From a virus (lineage: Duplodnaviria; Heunggongvirae; Uroviricota; Caudoviricetes): 39,649 nucleotides of DNA. The translations under genes and the position numbers were made by a program. Every line of letters starts with the position of its first letter. Positions within the stretch are counted from its first letter, which is position 1. The DNA is taken from the IMG/VR virus record IMGVR_UViG_3300009594_000001; one strand, written 5' to 3'. The notes under the pieces were generated by a model, which did not search any database, had not been told where the DNA came from, and saw nothing but the letters and a program-made list of their open reading frames with translations. Below are positions 14,611-26,931 of this stretch, piece after piece.

Positions 14611-15081
14611 ATGACTAAATTCCTCGTTAGGAGTGACGAAGAGATCGACATGGAGGACGGCTGCCAACTGGAAGAGCCGCCAGCAGAACAAGAGGAGACC
14701 TGTCCAGAGATTCTCGATGAGACTTTCTTCGGGGATTTCCTTCTCGATATCCAAGCCACGATTCGAGACCTGATCGACCGGTTCTTCGTAGGACGAGAGA
14801 TGTACTGTGGCGGCGAGATTCCGAAGTCGGTTCTACATGCCGATGAGTACGTGTCGCTGGTCCTGAACACAGATGTCATCAACGGCATGGATATCGTGTA
14901 TGATGCGATTGCCCGCTCCGGGCAGTATCAAACCGAATTCGAGCATGGCGTCTCCGATGACGTGAAACACGTCATCGACCTGATTCACGAGATCAAAGGC
15001 TTCGGCGTGCCCAAGCCTTTCATCACTGGCATCCTTCTCATGTACCTAGAGCTTTGCGAAGGAATGAGTGTAACTGAGTGA
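14611..15081 (+). CDS. Hypothetical acidic protein
   Basis: 156-aa ORF with GAGGAG SD. Confidence 0.7.
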   Translation: MTKFLVRSDEEIDMEDGCQLEEPPAEQEETCPEILDETFFGDFLLDIQATIRDLIDRFFVGREMYCGGEIPKSVLHADEYVSLVLNTDVINGMDIVYDAIARSGQYQTEFEHGVSDDVKHVIDLIHEIKGFGVPKPFITGILLMYLELCEGMSVTE

Positions 15082-15383
15082 GTGCCAGCGATCAGGATAT
15101 AGCCCTTGTGTCTGGGAGCTTCTTCGAGAAGGGCGTTCCCAAGAACAAGCGGTATTTACTAAAATACTTTGACAGTGAAGTGGCTGCGGTTTTTGTAAGT
15201 TACTTTTTGATTTTCCGAAGCCACACGCACTTTGTAGACCACACAGGATTCAGGGTCGGCAAGCGTTGGCTGCGGAAGTCTCAAGAACGCATAGATAGGC
15301 TGGAGAATGCATATGGCAAAGCGAGGAGTGCCGGTGACTTTAGTGCTGTGGCCGAGATTGAATCTGGGAGATACAATCTATGA
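15078..15383 (+). CDS. Hypothetical protein
   Basis: 101 aa, GTGA and ATGA overlaps at its two ends. Confidence 0.65.
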   Translation: MSASDQDIALVSGSFFEKGVPKNKRYLLKYFDSEVAAVFVSYFLIFRSHTHFVDHTGFRVGKRWLRKSQERIDRLENAYGKARSAGDFSAVAEIESGRYNL

Positions 15384-16504
15384 GCCTTTGGAGAATCTGG
15401 AGAGACGGCTTCCTGCCGTTCCATGACCCTGCCTGCCAACTACATGAAGACCTCCCTGCCTCTCAACAGGTCGAGAAACTAGCTGCCGATCTACCAGCAT
15501 TGGTTGCTGAGGGCACCATTCGACAAGAGCTAGTATCACGTCTCTCCTCGATCTCCGAACTCGAATTTTTCACTTTCTTTGACTGCCTGCCAGGTTTGCA
15601 GGGGTACGCCGAGAGAGCCATGATGCTCTTTTCGTACTTCGCTAGTTCCTATATCCACGCTCCAGGCCAACCAACTGCTACGATTCTCCCCAAGGAAATA
15701 AGTTTACCATTGGTGAGGCTGTCCGAGATCGTCGGACGCCCACCGATTCTCTCTTATGCTTCCTATTGTCTTTTTAATTGGGAGCGGTTGGAATACGACA
15801 AGCCCATTGAACTAGGCAACATCAAACTCCTTCAGAACTTTACATTGGATGAAGGACGACGTGATGAAAATTGGTTTGTCTTGGTACATGTAGATATCGA
15901 GGCTAAGGCAGGTCCAGGGATTGCAGCTATCTCGTACATGATGGACAAGTGGCGTGGCTGTCCTTTGGACGACCCTCTGGCCGAAGTGTATTCCAGTCTC
16001 GACGCCATGTACAAAACCCTTTGCCGGATGCCAGAGGAGTGTAGTCCCGATGTTTATTTTAGCAGAGTTCGGCCCTACATCTTCAGTTACGAGAATATGG
16101 TCTATGAAGGGTGGAGGCCAGAACCACTGACTTATCGAGGCGAGACCGGTGCCCAGAGTTCCGTAATCCCAGCATTTCAGATTGCCCTGGGGGTTCAGCA
16201 CAAGAATAGTATGCTTACGGAGCATTTAAGGGACATGCGGAAATACATGCCTCCAGAGCATCGAAGATGGCTCGCTAATCTAGAAAATCTGGGAACCGAT
16301 TTTAGGCAATATGCTATTAAGTTCGGGGAAAAGGAATTGTATAATAAGTGCCTTGGACGGTTGATCGATTTCAGGAAGAAACACTTGGAGTACGCTATAG
16401 AGTACATCCAGAAGAAAGTCGATAATCCAACTGGTACTGGCGGGACGCCCTACATTAGATGGCTCTCTCAGCTAGTTCAAGAGACTGAGGAGTTCTATCT
16501 ATGA
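15380..16504 (+). CDS. Indoleamine 2,3-dioxygenase (bacterial-type heme tryptophan dioxygenase)
   Basis: ENWFVLVHVDIE, RVRPYI, RGETGAQSS, MRKYMP.EHR, FRKKH (proximal His) and GTGGT are all IDO-family hallmarks. Confidence 0.88.
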   Translation: MSLWRIWRDGFLPFHDPACQLHEDLPASQQVEKLAADLPALVAEGTIRQELVSRLSSISELEFFTFFDCLPGLQGYAERAMMLFSYFASSYIHAPGQPTATILPKEISLPLVRLSEIVGRPPILSYASYCLFNWERLEYDKPIELGNIKLLQNFTLDEGRRDENWFVLVHVDIEAKAGPGIAAISYMMDKWRGCPLDDPLAEVYSSLDAMYKTLCRMPEECSPDVYFSRVRPYIFSYENMVYEGWRPEPLTYRGETGAQSSVIPAFQIALGVQHKNSMLTEHLRDMRKYMPPEHRRWLANLENLGTDFRQYAIKFGEKELYNKCLGRLIDFRKKHLEYAIEYIQKKVDNPTGTGGTPYIRWLSQLVQETEEFYL

Positions 16505-16734
16505 ATCGCTTCCTGACCTTGGCGACCCTAGACCGCCTTCGAGTTCTAGAAGGTCGTCTAACTGAATCCAAAGCAAAAACACAATTGTTGGAACTCAAGT
16601 TAGACGATCCCGATCTCTCCACAGACGACGTTTTTAACATATCTTCTAGTCTTGAAATTATTGAGGCAGATATGATAGACTGTCTCAATAATGTCCTGCT
16701 TGTAGAGCAGGAAGTCGGCCAAATTCTTTGCTAA
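16501..16734 (+). CDS. Hypothetical coiled-coil protein
   Basis: 77 aa, ATGA overlap. Confidence 0.6.
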   Translation: MNRFLTLATLDRLRVLEGRLTESKAKTQLLELKLDDPDLSTDDVFNISSSLEIIEADMIDCLNNVLLVEQEVGQILC

Positions 16735-16752
16735 CTTCAGATATATACATCC

Positions 16753-16947
16753 ATGATGAAATTCATGGATTGGTTTGTTGCTAGAGAAAGCACAGCCAGG
16801 AAGAGAGCGAAGGAAAACTTCTGCAAGTTTGCTGACAAGGATGCTCCTTGGCCGGGCGGAAATCCGCACGATGGGAACACCGGTAGTCAGGATTTGGTCG
16901 ATAAGTTCAAAAAAGCTGAACGCAAGACCAAGAAGAAAAACCGGTAG
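16753..16947 (+). CDS. Small basic protein; C-terminus altered by the 61-bp duplication
   Basis: MMKFMDWFVARE...; removing one repeat copy restores the ending KTKKKKCDD* (stop at 17014). Confidence 0.55.
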   Translation: MMKFMDWFVARESTARKRAKENFCKFADKDAPWPGGNPHDGNTGSQDLVDKFKKAERKTKKKNR

Positions 16948-17001
16948 TCAGGATTTGGTCGATAAGTTCAAAAAAGCTGAACGCAAGACCAAGAAGAAAA
17001 A
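16880..17001. repeat. Exact 61-bp tandem duplication
   Basis: CCGGTAGTCAGG...CAAGAAGAAAAA at 16880-16940 and 16941-17001. Confidence 0.95.
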
Positions 17002-17367
17002 ATGCGACGACTAACCGTACTTGTTTGGGTTGGCTTTTTCATGTTCATCGTGGTCTTAGTGGCGGCGATAGACATGTATTGGTCCATCAAGGTAGGCCCA
17101 GCCTTGCAGCAAACCGAGGAAAATCCTGTAGGCAGGCTCCTCATCAAAATCGACGGCGGCTCTTCAGCCCTGTTTATGTCAGTGAAGATGGTGGGAACTC
17201 TATTAGTGGTTCTCGCTATAATTTGGCTCTGCAATTATAGGCGGTGGTGGGCCTTTACCGTGTCACTGGTCCTGGCGGTGATGCAGGTGTCTTTGCTACT
17301 GTACCTGTACGGTGTCATTCCAGATATCCCGTCATTGCTGAGATCGTCAGCTACACTAAGGAGATGA
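17002..17367 (+). CDS. Small membrane protein, DUF5658-like
   Basis: Three hydrophobic segments; D.Y.S...EENPVGRLL...LFMSVK pattern. Confidence 0.55.
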   Translation: MRRLTVLVWVGFFMFIVVLVAAIDMYWSIKVGPALQQTEENPVGRLLIKIDGGSSALFMSVKMVGTLLVVLAIIWLCNYRRWWAFTVSLVLAVMQVSLLLYLYGVIPDIPSLLRSSATLRR

Positions 17368-17368
17368 T

Positions 17369-17806
17369 ATGACTAAAGAGATAGAAGAATCTGAAGTCAT
17401 AGCGGATGCCCAAGGCAATGACGATTTCCGCCATCAGCTACGGCTGCAAATTACTTCCGACGCCACATACGTAGTAATGCTATCAGTCAGCGACCGTGAT
17501 GATGAGAATGTCATAAGGAAGTTGACTGCAAAGAGGGGCGTTCCATTGGTGCCCTATGCGTACAATCAGGTCAGCGAGCATTACAACGTGCGATGTGTTG
17601 ACTACATGCCTTTAGGGGCCGTCCCGGTCGGCTTTCAGTTGACGCTTCCTGGCGTGTCGTTTTGGAAGGTCCGAGTGCCAATGCCAGAGGACGTGTTGGA
17701 GCGGTTTCTGACCCACGAGCAGAAGCAGGAGGCAGAGGGATTCAAGAACGCTGCTAGGGAAGCCAACCTGAAGGTAGAATACCTCCAGATGGTAAGTTGT
17801 TTCTGA
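17369..17806 (+). CDS. Hypothetical protein
   Basis: 145 aa, AAGGAG SD. Confidence 0.7.
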   Translation: MTKEIEESEVIADAQGNDDFRHQLRLQITSDATYVVMLSVSDRDDENVIRKLTAKRGVPLVPYAYNQVSEHYNVRCVDYMPLGAVPVGFQLTLPGVSFWKVRVPMPEDVLERFLTHEQKQEAEGFKNAAREANLKVEYLQMVSCF

Positions 17807-18339
17807 TGCTAAAGTTTATCTATGTCGGAGATCATGGGTCTAACCGAGATAAGTTCATTCAGAAGGTAAACAAACAAGCCGGAAAGGGCAATTGGTTCTT
17901 CGCCTTCCGAGCCGGGAAGAAACTGTATTCTTGGAATTGGGGTATGCAACTCTATGAGGATGCATACCTTTCTTTTTTAGGCAAGGATATCAACCTTGTC
18001 AAAAAGCTAGTTTCTGCTTGCGATGTCTGCGAAATCAATAACAAAGACCTTGATGCCTATCTTGACTACAAAAAGCAGAAACACGACAGAGATCATTATC
18101 AGGACATAGCGATTCGCCGATGTCTAGTTCGGTTGGGCGTCTGGTTCAAAGGAACCGACCTTTTAAGTGTACCGGGCACCGAGTTCGACCATTCCAAGAT
18201 ACCATTTCACTTGCCACATTTATTGCGGAAGCCAGATTCTTTGAAATCTATTAAGTCATGGCTAGATGGGAATCACTTGTTAGTGATTGCCTCATCTAGC
18301 GAAGACAAGGCAGAGCTTGCAGGAATCATGGTAAACTGA
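17806..18339 (+). CDS. Hypothetical protein
   Basis: TGATG coupling; ATG 17806 preferred as start. Confidence 0.65.
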   Translation: MLKFIYVGDHGSNRDKFIQKVNKQAGKGNWFFAFRAGKKLYSWNWGMQLYEDAYLSFLGKDINLVKKLVSACDVCEINNKDLDAYLDYKKQKHDRDHYQDIAIRRCLVRLGVWFKGTDLLSVPGTEFDHSKIPFHLPHLLRKPDSLKSIKSWLDGNHLLVIASSSEDKAELAGIMVN

Positions 18340-18363
18340 TACCATCCTGTCAGGAGATTACAA

Positions 18364-18885
18364 ATGAGTAAGAGAAAACCCAGAGACGTTCCAAGCCGAG
18401 ATGACTACTACATGGGTCTAGCTTTTTGGATTGCCTCCAAATCGAAAGACCCAGACACCCAGGTGGGTGGCTTGATCGTGAGTGCGGCAAATCGGCCCCT
18501 TGGTTGGGGCTATAACGGACCCCCACAGCAGATCAGGGACGAGGATATAGATTGGTCTCGTCCAGAGAAATACGATTGGGTTGAACACGCCGAAGAGAAT
18601 GCCATCGATCACTCCAGAGGCATGGACCTTACTGGTTCTACGCTGTATGTGATCGCCTCGCCGTGCAAGAATTGTATGCGAAAGATCGTTAAGGCTGGGA
18701 TCAGGCGAGTGGTTTACTTCCCCATCAAGCCCTCCGAAGGGTCTTCTATCAACCAAACCCAAATAAGCAAGTCCGAGGAGATTGCACATGCCGGGCACGT
18801 CCAGTTGGAGCGATTCAAAGGCAACCTTAACTGGATGCGAGATCGCATGAAGTGGATGGAGAGTGTGGGGGTGTTCAATGTATAG
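18364..18885 (+). CDS. dCMP deaminase (ComEB/T4 cd family)
   Basis: SKDPDTQVG, GYNG, HAEENAI and SPCKNC zinc motifs. Confidence 0.92.
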   Translation: MSKRKPRDVPSRDDYYMGLAFWIASKSKDPDTQVGGLIVSAANRPLGWGYNGPPQQIRDEDIDWSRPEKYDWVEHAEENAIDHSRGMDLTGSTLYVIASPCKNCMRKIVKAGIRRVVYFPIKPSEGSSINQTQISKSEEIAHAGHVQLERFKGNLNWMRDRMKWMESVGVFNV

Positions 18886-19255
18886 TCTTGTTTTACTCAA
18901 GCCAGATGCGGTCGAAAACACGATGGTCGGCGATCTGATAGGACGTTTCGAGCGACACTTCTCAATCGCCGGTCTCAAGTGGGTCAAAATGAATACGGAC
19001 TTGTGCAAGAAGCACTATCGGGAGCATGTAGGAAAAGATTTCTACCCAGGTCTGGAAAAGTTTATGACTAGTGGTCCGACCGTGGCGTTGGCGATGGAAG
19101 GCGACGTTTCCCTGGTTAGACGCTTAGGAATGATGTTGCGGATCGAGTTTAACCCAGACTACGCTGGTGGTCCACGGAATCTAATCCACGCCTCTGATGG
19201 TCCTGAATCTGCGGCTCGTGAGATAGCCTTGTGGTTTCCTGAACTGGTCTCCTAA
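18878..19255 (+). CDS. ndk: Nucleoside diphosphate kinase with shortened Kpn loop
   Basis: LKPDAV, HY.EH.GK.FY and RNLIHASD (catalytic His); start reassigned to ATG 18878. Confidence 0.9.
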   Translation: MYSLVLLKPDAVENTMVGDLIGRFERHFSIAGLKWVKMNTDLCKKHYREHVGKDFYPGLEKFMTSGPTVALAMEGDVSLVRRLGMMLRIEFNPDYAGGPRNLIHASDGPESAAREIALWFPELVS

Positions 19256-19258
19256 ATA
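19253..19258 (+). promoter_or_regulatory. Putative late-promoter box TAAATA
   Basis: 5 nt before ATG 19264; overlaps the ndk stop codon; same motif recurs before other genes. Confidence 0.5.
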
Positions 19259-19263
19259 CAGGT

Positions 19264-20127
19264 ATGGGAATCACAGGAGTACGAGTCGGGGTTTCTTGCT
19301 CACCAAAGAACAACTGCATTGATGTGCTAGGCTGCCCGAAAGGGGTATGTCCAGACTTCACCATTCGTCGCCATGATACGCAACCGCCATTTCGAGTCTT
19401 GGTTGAAGATTGCGATGGTCTTCTAGACCTTACCAGCGAACACTTAATCCTCGAAGTCAATATGTGGGCCAAAGCCAAACTGAAAAAGGCTATCACTGCC
19501 TGCGAAGATTACTTTGCTTTGGCTGACAACATAGGATTTGACCAGATTATGGTCGGTGATGTAATCATCATGGATCGTGTCAGAAATCCAGAGAGAATGT
19601 TGGTAACTGCTTTTGATGAGCAGAATAAACTTGTCAAAGTACAGAGAGGTCATCAGAACACAGAGTCTTCCGCTTGGAAAAAGGGCACCACAATGAAGAT
19701 CATGCGAGTGATTTCAGCGGCGGCGTCCATTGAAAGTGAGCGTCAGGATGTGCTACAGATTGACGGCACCACAGCCGAAGACCAATTGATTGCTACCTAT
19801 CTAGTACACAATTGGAAAGCGAACGATGTTTGTCTTCCTGGCTGTTACTGGCTGGAGTTCAAGTTGCTCAAGATGATAGATTTGGACCCCGATGGTGATG
19901 GTATATCTATTTCGTTGCCCAATCTGTTGTTTACATGCCCCGAAGTACCTAGTATAGTTTCTTGCGATCCAACTATATCCAACGTACCTAGTTTCACTCC
20001 AAGCACTATACCGGAGTGCCTGGGATGCTTTCTAGGTGATGGAGTAGAATGGATTCGTAGATTTCCAATTGAGGGCGAGGGCTTCTTAATCAAAATAGTT
20101 GATTCGCCAACAAAAGAGCTTGTATAA
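19264..20127 (+). CDS. Probable virion protein, BppU/baseplate-N-like
   Basis: FTIRRHDTQPPFRVLVEDCDGLLDLT...YWLEFKL resembles the GDT.P...D..G..DLTG...Y..EF baseplate Ig-like domain. Confidence 0.45.
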   Translation: MGITGVRVGVSCSPKNNCIDVLGCPKGVCPDFTIRRHDTQPPFRVLVEDCDGLLDLTSEHLILEVNMWAKAKLKKAITACEDYFALADNIGFDQIMVGDVIIMDRVRNPERMLVTAFDEQNKLVKVQRGHQNTESSAWKKGTTMKIMRVISAAASIESERQDVLQIDGTTAEDQLIATYLVHNWKANDVCLPGCYWLEFKLLKMIDLDPDGDGISISLPNLLFTCPEVPSIVSCDPTISNVPSFTPSTIPECLGCFLGDGVEWIRRFPIEGEGFLIKIVDSPTKELV

Positions 20128-20143
20128 TTTGGGAGGAGAGCCA

Positions 20144-21775
20144 ATGCCAAGTGTAGCTGATTTCCTAATTGAACGGCTGGCGAATTCTGGAGTCAAACAT
20201 GTGTTTGGCGTGCCAGGAGACTATGTACTTGGTTTTTATAAGAGACTAAGCGACTCACCAGATGTTGAAATAATCAATACAACAGATGAAAATCATGCTG
20301 GCTTTGCGGCAGACGCATATGCTCGTGTGCATGGGATTGGTGCTGTGTGCGTTACCTATAACGTCGGGGCACTGAAAATTGCCAACGCTGTCGCTTGTGC
20401 TTACGCCGAACGCTCCCCCATAGTTGTCATTTCTGGTTCCCCTGGGTTGAAGGAACGAGACGAAGGGTTCTTGTTGCACCACATGGTTCGCTCTTTCGAG
20501 TGCCAGAGGAAGGTCTTTGAGAACATTACCTGTGCCTCGGTTGTGTTGGACGACCTCGGCAAGGCTGGATATGCAATAGACCGGGTTCTTTGTGCCTTAC
20601 AGCACTACAAGCAACCCGTATACATTGAATTGCCTCGTGACGTGGCTGAAAAACCTGTGGGTTACGATGTATACACTCAGGGCACGCCTTCACTTCCCCA
20701 AACAGACGTGCAGAATCTTGAGGAAGCCCTGGCAGAGACCGTTCAGTGGATCGAGTCGGCCAAGAAGCCGGTGATCCTGGCCGGTGTCCAGCTTGCGAGA
20801 TATGGTCTCGGCACCGATCTAGTCAAGTTTGCCGAGAAGAAGAATATTCCTATACTCACCGATTTGTCGAGTAAGTCGGTGGTCAGTGAGAAACATCGGT
20901 TATTTGCTGGCTCTTACTTGGGTAACGTGAGCAGTCCTACCATTCGGCAATTGGTGGATGAATCAGACTGCATCCTCATGTTTGGGGTGCTGTTGACCGA
21001 TATGACGCTTTGTTTCAGACCAGTGAAATTCAGTATGAGGAATACTGTATCTTGTTCTGTAGAGGGGCTGAAGGTTAGAAACCATCTTTACGAAAATGTA
21101 CACTTCAAGGATTTTTGCACAGCCTTGTTCAAAGCCGAAGTCACTGTACAACCCAAGGGAGAGGGTTTCCCCAAGAAAGACATACCGTCATTTGTGCCCA
21201 GGGCAGATAAGAAGATCACTGTGATCAGGCTTTTCGAGAAGATAAATTCAATTCTCAACGACAATTATTCTATAATCGCCGATATCGGAGACTCGCTTTT
21301 CGGTGCTTCCGACTTGACGGTGCATAACAAAAATACCTTCCTTGGAAGTGCGTTTTATGCTAGTATGGGCTACGCTATCCCCGGTGCTTTGGGCATGAGT
21401 ATTGCCCAGCCGGACAAGCGGGTTATCGTCGTGGTTGGCGATGGAGCTTTCCAGATGTCGTGCACCGAGCTAAGTACGCTCGTTGCCAAAAAGCTCAATT
21501 CTATAATCTTTGTTTTGAACAATAGGGGGTATACTACCGAAAGGTTCCTGATAGACGGGCCTTTCAACGATGTGCCGAACTGGAACTACCACAAGATCAC
21601 TGAAACCATCTGTGGTGGCAAGGGTGTTCTAGTCGATTCAGAAGAAGGTTTGGAGAGAGCGGTCGCCGATGCCCTGAAGAGCCGAGAACTATTCATTATT
21701 AACGTCATGCTCGATCCAATGGATATTTCTCCAGCGTTGAAAAGGATGACCGACAGCCTTTCTCAAAGGATGTAG
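20144..21775 (+). CDS. TPP-dependent 2-keto-acid decarboxylase (pyruvate/indolepyruvate decarboxylase family)
   Basis: FGVPGDY, TDENHAGFAADAYAR, LLHHM, GDGAFQM...NNRGYTTER; start reassigned to ATG 20144 with GGAGG SD. Confidence 0.92.
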   Translation: MPSVADFLIERLANSGVKHVFGVPGDYVLGFYKRLSDSPDVEIINTTDENHAGFAADAYARVHGIGAVCVTYNVGALKIANAVACAYAERSPIVVISGSPGLKERDEGFLLHHMVRSFECQRKVFENITCASVVLDDLGKAGYAIDRVLCALQHYKQPVYIELPRDVAEKPVGYDVYTQGTPSLPQTDVQNLEEALAETVQWIESAKKPVILAGVQLARYGLGTDLVKFAEKKNIPILTDLSSKSVVSEKHRLFAGSYLGNVSSPTIRQLVDESDCILMFGVLLTDMTLCFRPVKFSMRNTVSCSVEGLKVRNHLYENVHFKDFCTALFKAEVTVQPKGEGFPKKDIPSFVPRADKKITVIRLFEKINSILNDNYSIIADIGDSLFGASDLTVHNKNTFLGSAFYASMGYAIPGALGMSIAQPDKRVIVVVGDGAFQMSCTELSTLVAKKLNSIIFVLNNRGYTTERFLIDGPFNDVPNWNYHKITETICGGKGVLVDSEEGLERAVADALKSRELFIINVMLDPMDISPALKRMTDSLSQRM

Positions 21776-21783
21776 TGTTTTCC

Positions 21784-22386
21784 ATGAAGCCTTACAAATT
21801 CCATAGGGATAACCGTGGTCCAAGCAACAGAGTCAATGAGCAGATTAGGCTGTCGCCGATCTTGCTCATTGACGAAAACGGAAATAAAGTTGGCGTTATT
21901 TCTAATAGAGATGCGTTAGCTAAAGCTAGAGAAGTAGGGTTGGACTTAGTAGAAGTCTCGCCGAATGTGCGTCCGCCTGTCTGTCGTATCATGGACTATG
22001 GCAAGTTTAAGTACGAGCAGAGCATCAAGGAGAAGAAGCAGAAACCGAAAGCATCTCAGGTCAAGGAAGTCAGATTCCGACCGTCCATTGGGGATGCCGA
22101 TGTCCAGACAAAGATACGTTCTATACGGAGCTTCTTGGAGGACGGACAGAAGGTTCAGATTCGCCTGGAGTTCAAAGCCAGGGAAAATGCACACAAAGAC
22201 CTGGGGTACGAGGTAGTTAAGAAGGTCACGGAGGCCGTGGCTGATATCGCCACTACTACTATGCCTCGGTCGGAGGGAAGATTTCTCTCCTGTTTAATTG
22301 AACTCAAGAGGAAATCGATTGGTGGAAAAGATGAATTACTTTCCGAAGCCCAAAGGGACAAGGGAGTTAGTACAGGAAACGCATGA
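21784..22386 (+). CDS. infC: Translation initiation factor IF-3
   Basis: RVNEQIR, GLDLVEVSP...PPVCRIMDYGKFKYEQ, VKEVRFRPSIG..D...K, FLEDGQKV. Confidence 0.93.
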   Translation: MKPYKFHRDNRGPSNRVNEQIRLSPILLIDENGNKVGVISNRDALAKAREVGLDLVEVSPNVRPPVCRIMDYGKFKYEQSIKEKKQKPKASQVKEVRFRPSIGDADVQTKIRSIRSFLEDGQKVQIRLEFKARENAHKDLGYEVVKKVTEAVADIATTTMPRSEGRFLSCLIELKRKSIGGKDELLSEAQRDKGVSTGNA

Positions 22387-23584
22387 GAAGGCTCTGGCCG
22401 CTGTGTTTGCTCCTAGTGAGAAGGTAGACACTCCATCTTCCCCTGGCATTCCTCTTCTAAGAACGATCCTTGAGAAACCAGAGGCCGCTAGGCAAGCACT
22501 TCTAGGCGATTTTGGAGATCGCCTCTTTGACTTCGCTAGCTCGATTGATCTCAAGCACCCCGACGTATTGCAAAACACAATTCTAGACGGTACGTTGGGC
22601 GGTGAATTCTCTACCAAGATTCAGCAGTTGTTCGCACTTTACGAGTTTGCGTCTGAGAGAGACCTGACCACAGTGATACCATGCATCGTAAAGGTAGCTC
22701 TGACACGCATAGAGAAGGAACTAAAGGCCATTGGCTCGCCATATGATAATCAGCAATTGGTGCGACTACTACCGACTCGTGAAGAAAGAGATGTAGTTCG
22801 CAAGACGAAAGAGGTACGAGATATACGTCTGGGGTACTACCTCAAGAAAGGCGAATCGGTTTGGGCCGGGCTACCTACTACTTTTGACATGTTTATCCGG
22901 CATAGCACCCTTTACAGGCAGGAAGTAGACAAAGCCAAGAAGAAGGCCGATAAGTTTGCTTCGCTTGGATGTGTGAGCATGGCTAAGGTGGTCGAGGACT
23001 CCATAGCTTCGTTTTCCGAGAAAATCGGTGATAGTCACTATGGTTTCCACCGAGTTACATTGGCAAATGCGGCTTTAATTGCGGCCAAGATGTATAAGTT
23101 TCCCATCAACTTCAAGACACCGGAAACTCTCAAGGTGCCGAAGGACTTTTTTGGCTACGATCTACATCCGTGCAAGGGCGATGTGATTGTGTCTAAGCGG
23201 GGCAGCCGCACGCCGCACATGATCGGGACTCTAGCCCCTTCACTAATGGACTATGCCCCTCGTGTCTATCCGGTGCATAGGTTGGTTAAAACAATGTCCA
23301 ATCAAATGCTCAAAGTGCTAGACCGCTTGGAGTCTTTTCCAGAAGCCGATGACAAATCTTTGTTCGATCATTACTTGGTCGTCGTGCCAAGTGTCAGGTG
23401 CCCGAAAGATATGGACAACAAGCTCAGTTTCTATGAGCGAAATGCGAAAACTAGGTCCGTCTTCAAAAACGAAAAGGAAGCAAATGAGGCTTTGGACATA
23501 CATCTAATCACCATAGGCACCGTTCACCCGCTTCTGTTGGGGGAGAAGGACGGTAAGTGCTACTTTATTTCGTATTGGAGATAG
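22331..23584 (+). CDS. Hypothetical protein
   Basis: About 417 aa from ATG 22331, overlapping the infC 3' end. Confidence 0.75.
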   Translation: MNYFPKPKGTRELVQETHEKALAAVFAPSEKVDTPSSPGIPLLRTILEKPEAARQALLGDFGDRLFDFASSIDLKHPDVLQNTILDGTLGGEFSTKIQQLFALYEFASERDLTTVIPCIVKVALTRIEKELKAIGSPYDNQQLVRLLPTREERDVVRKTKEVRDIRLGYYLKKGESVWAGLPTTFDMFIRHSTLYRQEVDKAKKKADKFASLGCVSMAKVVEDSIASFSEKIGDSHYGFHRVTLANAALIAAKMYKFPINFKTPETLKVPKDFFGYDLHPCKGDVIVSKRGSRTPHMIGTLAPSLMDYAPRVYPVHRLVKTMSNQMLKVLDRLESFPEADDKSLFDHYLVVVPSVRCPKDMDNKLSFYERNAKTRSVFKNEKEANEALDIHLITIGTVHPLLLGEKDGKCYFISYWR

Positions 23585-23691
23585 TATGGCTGTTACATTG
23601 ACAGAACGTGTGGTTAAGGAACTCAAGCACATCATCCAAGAACAACACGCCAATGAGCCGGAAATCTACATCCGTGCTGGCGTGAGAGGGG

Positions 23692-24450
23692 AGGTTTAGC
23701 AGTTTTCACTGAACCCATGACAAAACCCGAAAATCTATGAAAATCGGCTAAAAATCGGAGGAAAATGACGATGAATACTGCTCGGTGGGCGGTGTTTTTG
23801 GACTCGTTCAACGAGGAGTGGCAGTACAAAGTTGATGGCTACGAACTACTGGACGGTATCTGCTTGATTTCTGGTTGCCACGGTTGTACTGCTGGCTGGA
23901 GATCAAGGGCGAGAAGCCGACCGAGTTGGAAGAAAAAATGCTCTACGAGTTGGCTTACGCTACAGACAAGCCAGTGGCGATAGTATGGGGTTTGCCGGTC
24001 GCCGCACGGAAGTATTATCACGATGGCAAGAAGTGCATCCCCGACTACATCACAGAACACATCTTGTCATGTCCACGCAGAGCGGAGTTCACACGTCAGG
24101 GAAAGGCGAACCCGGTGTATGAGGACTATACCGCCGAAAGGCTCAAAATCGGCAGCAGGAAATGGAATAGAAAACAAAGCAACTTTGTCTGGAGGAAGTT
24201 CTTGACCTTACTGGAACGCAAGTGTGGAGAATGGTCGTTCACCAGTATCATCGGCAAGTACAAGTACAGGTGGATGCACAAGACAAGTATCCATGAGTCG
24301 GCGGCTTTTGTGATAGGTCGGTGTGGACTTGGGTATAACGAAGCCGTCCTCACAGGACTACAGGTTAGACTGGCAGACCTAAAAGAGTTTGTTGGCACTT
24401 GAAAGAGGGCGATTTTAGAGTCCCATGATTTTCATGGGTTTTAGAAAGCA
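23692..24450 (+). mobile_element. Non-autonomous IS200/IS605- or IS607-like element carrying a tnpB remnant
   Basis: Interrupts iscA at the GGGCSG motif; AGGTT at both junctions; right-end hairpin CCCATGA-TTT-TCATGGG (24422-24438); AACCCATGA near the left end is the inverse of TCATGGGTT. Confidence 0.75.
23765..24402 (+). pseudogene. tnpB: Degenerate, internally deleted and frameshifted TnpB
   Basis: C-terminal NRKQSNFVWRKFLTLLERK...TSIIGKYKY...SIHESAAFVIGRCGLG is typical of one TnpB clade; split over two overlapping frames. Confidence 0.7.
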
Positions 24451-24685
24451 GGTTGTAGCGGCTTCCAGTATAACTTTAGCTTGGATGAATACTTCGATGA
24501 GACCAAAGATGTTATGACAGAACAGGACGGACTCAAGGTGGTTGTCGATAAGCGGTCGATGATGTACATCGATGGGACCACTATCGATTTTCATGACTCG
24601 TTAGACAAACGGGGATTCGTTTTCAATAACCCATCTGTCAAAACCACCTGCTGTTGCGGTTCTAGTTTCTCTATGTGAGGAACCT

Positions 24686-26170
24686 ATGCAATACATTGGG
24701 ATGAACTACATTAACGGCGATTTTTGTGTGACCAGGGTGGATTTCTCGGACGTGAATCCCTGTACCGAGGACAGCCTGGGGATGTTCCCTCAGTCTACTG
24801 AGGCCGAGGTCGGCGAGGCTATCACTGCTGCCAAGTCTGCTTTTAAGAAATGGAACAGCTTGAGTCGTGTCCAGCGAGCGGACCTGTTTGACAAACTGGC
24901 ACAGTTAATCAAGCAGGATGCCGCAAACCTCCAGAGAATCATCTGCGAAGAGACCGGCAAGAACCAAAATGAGGCACACGCCGAGGTAATAGAGGCGTTG
25001 CATATGTGTCAGACAGTTGCCGCTTCCGGCAGGAATCCTTGTGGCGATTGGATGGCATCTGAATTGGCTACTAAGGATGCCTATGTGATCCGCAAACCAA
25101 AGGGCGTGGTTCTCGTAATCAGTCCTTGGAACTTTCCGCTAGCTATAGGGTCGTTCTGGTTGAGTGGTCCTACTTTACTGGAAGGAAATTGTGTGGTCCA
25201 CAAACCGTCTGAGTTGACACCAATGACTGCTCAGGCAGCAGCCGCTCTTTACAATGCGGCTGGTTTTCCATACGGCGTGTACAACTTATTGCATGGAGAT
25301 GGATCGGTTGGGCGTAAGTTGGTGGAACATCCTGGTGTAGATTGTATTCTTTTTACCGGCAGTCCGCAAGTTGGACAGTATATTCGACAAGAGTGTGCTA
25401 ATTCGTGGCACAAGACCTGTGCCTGCGAAATGGGCGGCAAGTCAGCGGTGCTTTTGTTCGAGGACGGTAATCAGGAGTTGGCCTTGGATGTCATGGTTGC
25501 TAGTTCCTTGAAGTTATCTGGTCAACGCTGTGTCTCTGCTGGAAGACTGCTGATCCAGAGGAGTATTTTCGAGGACTTCACCGAGAGGTTCGTGTACCGA
25601 GTGTCTGGGTTGGTGCCGGGCGATCCATTCAATTACGAGGACGTGGACCCGCCATACTATGGGCCATTGATTAGTGCAAAGCAGTTAGATCGGGTCATGT
25701 ACTACAACATGCAGACGACTCGTGATCCAGCGGTTGAGGTTCTGTTGGAGGGTCATCGTTTGAATCGGTCTGGTTATTTTCTGACGCCTCACGTCTACCG
25801 AACCGAGTGGCACGATGCACCCTTTTTGAAGGAAGAAGTTTTCGGGCCGCATATTGCTTTGATTCCCTTCAACGATCTAGATGATGCGATAAGGATATAC
25901 AACGACACGGAGTATGGGTTAGCCTGCGGGGTTATCACTGATGATTTCCGCAAGATGAGGCGATGTCGGGACGAGTGCAAAGCTGGGATGATCTACTTGA
26001 ACGGCGGAAGCATAGCAGCAGAAAGTCACATGCCCTTCGGCGGCATAGGCAAGTCTGGAAACGGGTACAAGTCAGCAGCAGGGACGTACAAAGCCGTCAC
26101 GGAGGAAGTCGCAGTTACAGTCAACTACGAGGTCGGCAAGATGACATGGGCACAAGGTATGAAGTCATGA
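24686..26170 (+). CDS. NAD(P)-dependent aldehyde dehydrogenase
   Basis: ISPWNFP, HKPSELTP, FTGS, EMGGKS (catalytic Glu), SGQRCVS (catalytic Cys), EEVFGP. Confidence 0.95.
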   Translation: MQYIGMNYINGDFCVTRVDFSDVNPCTEDSLGMFPQSTEAEVGEAITAAKSAFKKWNSLSRVQRADLFDKLAQLIKQDAANLQRIICEETGKNQNEAHAEVIEALHMCQTVAASGRNPCGDWMASELATKDAYVIRKPKGVVLVISPWNFPLAIGSFWLSGPTLLEGNCVVHKPSELTPMTAQAAAALYNAAGFPYGVYNLLHGDGSVGRKLVEHPGVDCILFTGSPQVGQYIRQECANSWHKTCACEMGGKSAVLLFEDGNQELALDVMVASSLKLSGQRCVSAGRLLIQRSIFEDFTERFVYRVSGLVPGDPFNYEDVDPPYYGPLISAKQLDRVMYYNMQTTRDPAVEVLLEGHRLNRSGYFLTPHVYRTEWHDAPFLKEEVFGPHIALIPFNDLDDAIRIYNDTEYGLACGVITDDFRKMRRCRDECKAGMIYLNGGSIAAESHMPFGGIGKSGNGYKSAAGTYKAVTEEVAVTVNYEVGKMTWAQGMKS

Positions 26171-26931
26171 GAACAATTGGACTGGTAGGAGTGGGATTTG
26201 TTGGTAATGCTGTCCTCGAAGGTATGATACATGCTTTCAAGGTGCAGTGTTATGACAAGTACAAACGGCCTCGAACAATATACGAACCAGTATATTCAGC
26301 CCCTTACTATTGGCACGAAGATTTGGTATCGCTAATTAAAGGGATGGATGGGTCGGTGTTTGTTTGCGTGCCTACGCCGATGAATAAAGACGGCAGTTGT
26401 TCAACGAAGATCGTTGAAGAAGTCGTGCAGAGTCTAGATAATGCTTCTCAAACGGCTCTGGAGGACTTTAAGAATCAAGATCGCATCATAGTAGGAGGGC
26501 CGAGGGAAGCCACGGATGTGATGAAGCTGATGTATGAAATAGCATATCCAAGAGTCCTTGTGACAAAGATTAGTTCCACCATAGCAGAAATAGTAAAGTA
26601 CATTACGAATGTATTTTTAGCTACCAAAGTGTCTTTGTCAAACGAATTCAAACAGATCAGCGATGCTCTCAACATAGATTACGATAAGGTGTTGGAGTAC
26701 GCTACCAAGGATAAGAGATTGGGCACGTCTCATTGGGCTGTTCTTGGTCCTGACGGCAAGAAGGGCTTCAGTGGTTTTTGCTTTCCGAAGGATATCAATG
26801 CCTTTATTTACAAGGCTGAAAAACTATTATTGAATCCCATCGTGATGAAAGCCGTATGGCAGAAAAACCTGGAGGTACGTCCAGAACGTGATTGGGAGTT
26901 GTTAAAAGGACGGGCTATAGTTAATGAGTGA
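26167..26931 (+). CDS. ugd: UDP-glucose/GDP-mannose dehydrogenase family protein with internal in-frame deletion (possible pseudogene)
   Basis: GVGFVG, VCVPTP, AEIVKYITN and GFCFPKD present; the KST and NPEF segment is missing; start reassigned to ATG 26167. Confidence 0.75.
   Translation: MRTIGLVGVGFVGNAVLEGMIHAFKVQCYDKYKRPRTIYEPVYSAPYYWHEDLVSLIKGMDGSVFVCVPTPMNKDGSCSTKIVEEVVQSLDNASQTALEDFKNQDRIIVGGPREATDVMKLMYEIAYPRVLVTKISSTIAEIVKYITNVFLATKVSLSNEFKQISDALNIDYDKVLEYATKDKRLGTSHWAVLGPDGKKGFSGFCFPKDINAFIYKAEKLLLNPIVMKAVWQKNLEVRPERDWELLKGRAIVNE

Follow-up and report, generated by a model that had tools for sequence, protein, structure and literature searches.

A core 2-keto-acid decarboxylase and optional aldehyde dehydrogenase and IDO-family dioxygenase genes in a conserved block of a huge-phage lineage

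A 39,649-nt stretch of viral DNA (hereafter the window), comprising bases 103048–142696 of the linear 435,946-bp IMG/VR huge-phage record IMGVR_UViG_3300009594_000001 (CheckV completeness estimate 85%), encodes a thiamine pyrophosphate (TPP)-dependent 2-keto-acid decarboxylase (DC; 20144–21775), an aldehyde dehydrogenase (ALDH; 24686–26170) and an IDO-family heme dioxygenase (IDO; 15380–16504). A reading made from the sequence only had taken the source to be a virus and the three enzymes to be intact, and both statements hold: all three are full-length open reading frames (ORFs) on the plus strand with complete catalytic residues. That sequence-only reading further joined them into one dispersed module of tryptophan and 2-keto-acid catabolism. 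Based on the observed integrity of the genes, their catalytic residues, distribution, synteny and selection, we tentatively favour, at somewhat less than even confidence, a different account, in which DC and ALDH would form a shunt from 2-keto acids to acids acting on host substrates, IDO would be an independent optional gene, and the three would be separately inherited units in one block. On this view all three are auxiliary metabolic genes of host origin, kept in a single block that is conserved and co-directional in a huge-phage lineage.

A decarboxylase kept throughout the lineage

Judged by its sequence, DC (543 aa) is a member of the PDC/IPDC/KdcA family (PDC, pyruvate decarboxylase) that lies outside every characterised subgroup. 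The listed ORF opens at a TTG (20099); the true start is the ATG at 20144 behind GGAGGAG, which yields 543 aa as in relatives (homologue range 541–545 aa). All three TPP_enzyme Pfam domains (N, M and C) are present, as are the equivalents of Asp27, Glu50, His113, His114 and Glu473 (D26, E49, H112, H113 and E466) and the GDG (432–434) and NN (459–460) motifs. The closest solved structures are ANC27, KivD and KdcA (1e-86 to 6e-84), and solved relatives span 1e-86 (ANC27, KivD, 6VGS) to 1e-71 (Zymomonas PDC). KivD/KdcA of Lactococcus lactis (9MSA, 2VBF), AbPPDC (2NXW), EcIPDC (1OVM) and bacterial PDC (1ZPD) belong to the same three-domain TPP fold family and share with DC the catalytic Asp, Glu, His-His and Glu, the GDG...NN motif and a length of ~545 aa. 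All of them match at 1e-86 to 1e-71, and DC differs from them in its pocket (Leu385/Thr465/Met287), in being phage-borne and in its coupling to IF3. Branched-chain decarboxylases score above PDCs (294 versus 243 bits). The earlier assignment of DC to the IpdC family stands at the level of the wider PDC/IPDC/KdcA family and fails at the finer one: the top NCBIfam model is the indolepyruvate/phenylpyruvate decarboxylase equivalog, and DC stays below the cut-offs of both such equivalogs (TIGR03393, 310 bits versus 946; TIGR03394, 351.3 versus 554.5).

Alignments to ANC27 and KivD place Leu385, Thr465, Leu469 and Met287 in the substrate pocket. Leu385 corresponds to KivD Phe381 and PDC Trp392, Thr465 to Val461 and Ile472, Leu469 to Ile465 and Ile476, and Met287 to KivD Ser286 and PDC Tyr290; in Zymomonas PDC, Trp392, Tyr290 and Ile472 close the pocket around pyruvate. 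In the alignment, the PDC-type ancestor ANC27 has Trp and Ile where DC has Leu385 and Thr465. The pocket suggests a substrate larger than pyruvate, and DC is probably not restricted to pyruvate. Yeast PDC likewise lacks the Trp, so its absence from DC is still compatible with pyruvate as a substrate. Among 32 phage DC copies, Leu385 and Thr465 hardly vary, and they are common to cellular relatives (32 of 37 and 36 of 37, respectively), and the specificity of DC would therefore be that of an uncharacterised cellular clade.

DC homologues at ≥60% identity make up more than 120 protein clusters, on contigs of up to 693 kb. The loci that we compared comprise 23 from IMG/VR (≥47% identity), 13 from metagenomes (≥53%; one duplicating an IMG/VR record), one misbinned contig in a Chloracidobacterium metagenome-assembled genome (MAG) and one GenBank record, LR756511.1. 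In the tree, the phage DCs form a single clade with 100% support, apart from cellular homologues of 42–48% identity in Verrucomicrobiota, Planctomycetota, Nitrospira and Nitrososphaeria. This topology is consistent with a single acquisition of an alpha-keto-acid decarboxylase gene from an uncharacterised cellular clade, for which these four taxa would be the donor range. Comparison with L143, a relative at 90% identity, gives a dN of 0.068 with dS saturated; purifying selection on DC is strong. DC is a core gene, near-universal in its huge-phage lineage.

A cellular operon as the origin of the DC–ALDH pairing was considered and rejected: an ALDH lies within 6 kb in 3 of the 79 cellular DC loci (28–30% identity) and an IDO in none of the 79. 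What adjoins the cellular DC homologues varies from locus to locus (epimerase, ABC ATPase, PUA-methyltransferase, radical SAM, HAD), and Nitrospira and Chloroflexia genomes that hold a DC homologue also hold IDO, at unlinked places. In one Verrucomicrobiae and two Nitrospira genomes, the DC homologue adjoins a gene for an RlmI-type PUA-domain SAM methyltransferase (L070:7621–8823, L097:4588–5838 and L123:4654–5847), an adjacency that may be due to chance.

Intact ALDH and IDO genes in variable slots

ALDH (494 aa; PF00171, 422 bits) sits in a variable cargo slot, and its length falls within the homologue range of 487–507 aa. It has the catalytic Cys, general-base Glu and oxyanion Asn of the superfamily, with N149, K173, E176, E248 and C282 all kept, and the catalytic residues are conserved in 16 phage copies. 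None of the NCBIfam equivalogs compared (HpaE, StyD, succinate-semialdehyde dehydrogenase, betaine-aldehyde dehydrogenase and others) was reached; the top scores were 325 for HpaE (cut-off 638) and 274 for StyD (cut-off 800). The motif KPSE places a Glu at the position of ALDH2 Glu195, a feature associated with a preference for NAD+, and the enzyme is thus probably NAD+-preferring. ALDH homologues at ≥55% identity make up more than 120 clusters, which share many contigs with the DC matches, for example those of 633,754, 584,235, 242,307, 189,276, 167,683 and 65,111 bp.

ALDH appears to be one part of an optional cassette in a slot ~3 kb downstream of DC, where it is usually accompanied by an IscA-like gene and often by a short UDP-glucose dehydrogenase (UGDH)-like gene. 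In the window, the IscA/HesB-like gene (24346–24678, plus strand) is broken: PF01521 matches its C-terminal half only, and it is interrupted in frame by a TGA (24400) and a TAG (24442), the first of which ends a 175-aa ORF (23875–24402) leading in from the same frame. Intact copies of 111–138 aa precede ALDH in relatives. Stop-codon recoding is an unlikely explanation for the interruptions because two different codons, TGA and TAG, would be involved. Directly after ALDH lies a short UDP-glucose/GDP-mannose-dehydrogenase-like gene (26146–26931, plus strand; PF00984 and partial PF03721), whose product comprises the N and central domains, retains the catalytic Cys and lacks the C-terminal nucleotide-sugar domain. 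The same form follows ALDH in six relatives (L004, L006, L008, L018, L059 and L148; for instance L004:15308–16270, L006:14900–15856 and L008:15891–16739) and is, from this comparison of sequences, a shortened but conserved version of the gene and not a damaged one. The sequence-only reading, which had counted several accessory genes as broken, was therefore right about the IscA-like gene and mistaken about this supposedly truncated UGDH.

IDO (374 aa) occupies another variable cargo slot, 3.6 kb upstream of DC. It is full-length (homologue range 363–395 aa) and matches PF01231 over residues 8–346 with 217.9 bits (gathering cut-off 26); human IDO1/IDO2 structures match at E ~1e-32 over ~310 residues. 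Y126, R231, R332, the proximal His335 and the ETGAQSS loop are invariant in an alignment of 126 homologues. With structure 6CXU, His335 aligns with IDO1 His346, the proximal heme ligand, and Arg231 with IDO1 Arg231, which contacts the substrate carboxylate. The protein thus shares with prokaryotic IDO-like proteins (PF01231) and mammalian IDO1/IDO2 the fold family, the proximal His, Arg231, Tyr126 and the Q-S-S loop. It differs from IDO1 in carrying a His at the position of Ser167, resembling the distal His of TDO, in having ETGAQSS for GSAGQSS and in being shorter; it also differs from known IDO systems in that no kynurenine-pathway partners were found in the record. By its Pfam match and these residues the protein belongs to the IDO family, and conversion of tryptophan to N-formylkynurenine is the predicted activity.

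The ATG that opens IDO shares the sequence ATGA (15380–15383) with the stop of a 101-aa ORF, so IDO was inserted so as to be in translational register with this backbone gene. At 61% identity, the L002 copy of IDO is closer to that of the window than are the syntenic IDOs (43–51%), and it is surrounded by primase, nuclease and glycosylase genes; standing alone in this replication and repair context, it argues that IDO needs no adjoining DC or ALDH. Further IDO homologues are found on 586–634-kb contigs. For an IDO gene in phages, searches of PHROG families, of 50,697 GenBank phage records and of the literature all came back empty; literature searches for IDO or keto-acid decarboxylases in huge or jumbo phages likewise yielded nothing relevant. 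Huge phages as described by Al-Shayeb et al. 2020 (PMC7162821) have the same kind of genome and the same carriage of host-like genes such as IF3, and its text contains no reference to a decarboxylase, a dioxygenase, an aldehyde dehydrogenase or a tryptophan gene.

Distribution and synteny of the three genes

The genes were tallied by distinct lineage, with whole-record searches where a full record existed, which gave 27 DC-bearing lineages. The co-occurrence in relatives on which the sequence-only reading had staked its proposal is found: ALDH accompanies DC in 16 of the 27, for the most part with gene order and strand unchanged (~2–6 kb downstream in 13, 45–60 kb away in three), and all six lineages with DC and IDO have ALDH as well (the window, L006/7, L008, L018, L059 and L021). 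Ten lineages hold ALDH without IDO, 11 hold neither, and none holds IDO without ALDH. Most of the records with neither gene are fragments, so that a lack of ALDH is certain in just one of them, the complete 572-kb relative G003. This nesting of IDO within ALDH gives a raw one-sided Fisher p of ~0.02–0.03. On the DC tree, IDO changes state five times and ALDH six times, which leaves only 3–5 independent contrasts, so a sign test on the nesting cannot reach significance. The full cassette of IscA, ALDH and UGDH-like genes is present in 5 of the 6 IDO lineages and in 3 of the 21 lineages without IDO.

All three genes lie in a block of conserved order extending over ~25 kb, which runs from PDF through the 101-aa ORF, the IDO slot and dCMP deaminase to u287, DC, IF3 and u428, and continues after u428 with the slot for IscA, ALDH and the short UGDH-like gene, GroES-like, DnaJ and GT2. 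This arrangement does not bear out a single module. The backbone is made of unrelated genes (PDF, dCMP deaminase, nucleoside diphosphate kinase (NDK), IF3, GroES-like, DnaJ and GT2), and the fixed neighbours of DC are u287 and IF3, not ALDH. The u287 gene (19264–20127, plus strand), coding for a phage-specific all-beta protein, lies directly upstream of DC in every lineage. IF3 (21775–22386, plus strand; IF3_N and IF3_C domains) comes directly after DC in every related locus but L006/L007, which represent one lineage. Within 21773–21786, the DC stop TAG overlaps the GTG that opens the IF3 frame (TAGTG), and an in-frame ATG follows 9 nt on (21784), an arrangement from which DC and IF3 are probably co-translated. 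DC would be tightly coupled to IF3.

The block also appears in records filed under cellular organisms. L059 (JAYVUD010000189.1, 46,487 bp), filed under a Chloracidobacterium MAG, has the order u287–DC–IF3–u428–IscA–ALDH with IDO upstream, and a 61,839-bp contig (P0176 and P0351) filed under a 'Thorarchaeota' MAG likewise contains the phage block. Both look like misbinned huge-phage DNA. In GenBank, LR756511.1 (595 kb) carries a DC of this clade (52% identity) and an ALDH (50%) 5.4 kb apart, without IDO.

Possible functions and competing explanations

Here we infer substrates, the hand-over from DC to ALDH and any benefit to the phage. In the account that we tentatively favour, DC would turn a host-made 2-keto acid into an aldehyde during infection. 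Where ALDH is present, it would oxidise this aldehyde to the acid, gaining NADH and removing a toxic intermediate. IDO, from its own optional slot upstream, would act alone: using O2, it would cleave the ring of tryptophan (or of a related indole) to N-formylkynurenine, and anything beyond that product would be left to host enzymes.

Several observations weigh against such a shunt. The complete relative G003 has DC without ALDH or IDO, and in the three genomes with a displaced ALDH the two genes are 45–60 kb apart. The trees of DC and ALDH conflict in part, the window ALDH pairing with the displaced L027 copy (98% support). Between DC and ALDH lie IF3, the orphan protein u428 and the IscA-like gene; since these are unlinked to aldehyde chemistry, adjacency within the block carries little weight. 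Cellular DC homologues have no link to ALDH or IDO. The short UGDH-like gene adjoins ALDH in seven lineages, including 5 of the 6 with IDO, and this dehydrogenase could be ALDH's real partner. Two lineages, moreover, retain full-length DC copies with the GDG...NN motif but without catalytic residues (D26A and H113N in L152:1389–2999; D26R, a deleted His pair and E466K in L029:10001–11581 and also in L030), which hints at a role beyond catalysis.

It is also conceivable, though on balance unlikely, that the three genes have no functional link at all and are independent cargo serving different purposes or none, brought near each other by slots in a conserved backbone. The mixture of translation, nucleotide, chaperone, Fe-S and sugar genes in the block is what such a view predicts, as are the repeated gains or losses of IDO (at least five) and ALDH (at least six) on the DC tree, a nesting that is non-significant once relatedness is considered, the displacement of ALDH in some genomes and of IDO among replication genes, and an IscA gene that is already a pseudogene in the window. 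It accounts less readily for the presence of ALDH in every DC-bearing lineage with IDO (with the raw p given above), for the constant slot and strand of ALDH downstream of DC in 13 lineages, and for the chemistry, in which an aldehyde-making decarboxylase and an aldehyde-consuming dehydrogenase are consecutive. Another alternative is a bypass of pyruvate dehydrogenase: DC would be a pyruvate decarboxylase and ALDH would convert acetaldehyde to acetate plus NAD(P)H, or, in genomes lacking ALDH, an alcohol dehydrogenase of the host would yield ethanol, with central carbon and redox rerouted during infection. Pyruvate is the most abundant 2-keto acid, and such a universal substrate would explain a core DC across varied hosts; DC has the full PDC-type catalytic set, and bacterial PDC structures match it at 1e-71. 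We nevertheless regard this bypass as rather improbable, given the replacement of the Zymomonas pocket residues Trp392, Tyr290 and Ile472 by Leu385, Met287 and Thr465, the better fit of branched-chain decarboxylases, and the NAD-type Glu of ALDH, which makes an NADPH benefit unlikely.

The tryptophan route of the sequence-only reading seems very unlikely to us. It would require a host aminotransferase to supply indole-3-pyruvate, DC to act as IpdC in forming indole-3-acetaldehyde and ALDH to yield indole-3-acetate (IAA), with IDO diverting or removing tryptophan or indole products and the outcome being auxin- or kynurenine-type signals. The top-scoring model of DC, a Leu385 pocket wider than that of KivD or PDC, and the confinement of IDO to ALDH-bearing genomes, mostly with the full cassette, are in its favour. 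The Ehrlich/indole-3-pyruvate pathway is indeed similar in having a decarboxylase and an ALDH that are able to act in sequence, here a few kb apart on one strand; it differs in that the phage record lacks an aminotransferase and in that unrelated genes lie between DC and ALDH, which some genomes do not retain as a pair. That no aminotransferase is visible had been noted for the window and proved true of the whole 435,946-bp record (an estimated 85% of the genome), in which searches with positive controls found none of classes I/II, III, IV or V (PF00155, PF00202, PF01063 and PF00266), no PF00266-type kynureninase and no cyclase-type kynurenine formamidase KynB (PF04199), the alpha/beta-hydrolase type of formamidase not having been searched. 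On this gene content, neither a phage-encoded route from indole-3-pyruvate to IAA nor a phage-encoded kynurenine pathway (KynA/IDO, KynB, KynU) appears to be in place. IDO and IpdC, furthermore, stand on alternative branches of tryptophan breakdown (PMC5786828), so that IDO, DC and ALDH do not form a line and IDO would use up the substrate of the indolepyruvate route instead of feeding it. DC remains far under both equivalog cut-offs and is core in 21 lineages without IDO. For the proposed auxin or kynurenine signalling, no support exists beyond family names, and a phage of environmental bacteria has no evident target for such a signal. A related view, which we find similarly doubtful, is that IDO, DC, ALDH and the short UGDH-like protein are a phage-borne route degrading tryptophan or another aromatic during infection, with DC acting on a ring-opened or indole 2-keto acid; the set would be kept or lost together, and the enrichment of the full cassette in IDO lineages is consistent with it.

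Genes for translation and metabolism are a known feature of huge phages, and here a TPP decarboxylase is a lineage-wide core gene. Since IDO, DC and ALDH are easily assayed, they offer a tractable way into the chemistry that giant phages impose on their hosts. Proximity in these genomes mostly reflects shared backbone synteny and is not readable as an operon.

Neighbouring genes and other features of the window

The u287 protein is present in 31 of 31 phage loci at 43–84% identity, and its Atlas cluster is 96% viral. Its model (pLDDT 78.7) returned as sole fold matches weak ones to phage virion proteins; with this all-beta fold, u287 was rejected as a missing aminotransferase or formamidase. 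Inside the end of u287, directly before the DC ribosome-binding site, lies a promoter-like TTGATT-18-TATAAT (20099–20128; 10 of 12 matches). On the other side of IF3, u428 (22298–23584, plus strand; start uncertain) encodes a backbone protein with homologues of 23–36% identity in 24 loci and invariant H87, P88, R156, R168, D357 and E416. Comparison of its model (pLDDT 81.8, pTM 0.80) with the PDB by sequence profile, Foldseek and VIA-align returned only a helical hairpin and no fold like that of a PLP enzyme; u428 was likewise rejected as the missing aminotransferase or formamidase, though more tentatively, given its orphan fold.

Upstream, the 101-aa backbone ORF (15078–15383, plus strand) has homologues of 30–47% identity in nearly all related loci and no Pfam match. 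Between IDO and DC lie dCMP deaminase (18364–18885, plus strand; PF00383 at 9.7e-18) and NDK (18863–19255, plus strand; PF00334 at 1e-28), nucleotide-metabolism genes unrelated to either enzyme. A megablast of 12 kb of the window against GenBank phages gave no match. Scans for promoters (24 versus 15.1 ± 4.7 in shuffles) and terminators (11 versus 10.9) were not usefully above and about equal to the shuffled background, respectively. Besides PDF, dCMP deaminase, NDK and IF3, the window encodes marks of a huge phage, namely DNA polymerase III alpha, a DHH phosphoesterase, DnaJ, GT2 and an intein-bearing AAA ATPase. The ORF of this ATPase (159–2225) is split by an intein with Hint and LAGLIDADG homing-endonuclease domains.

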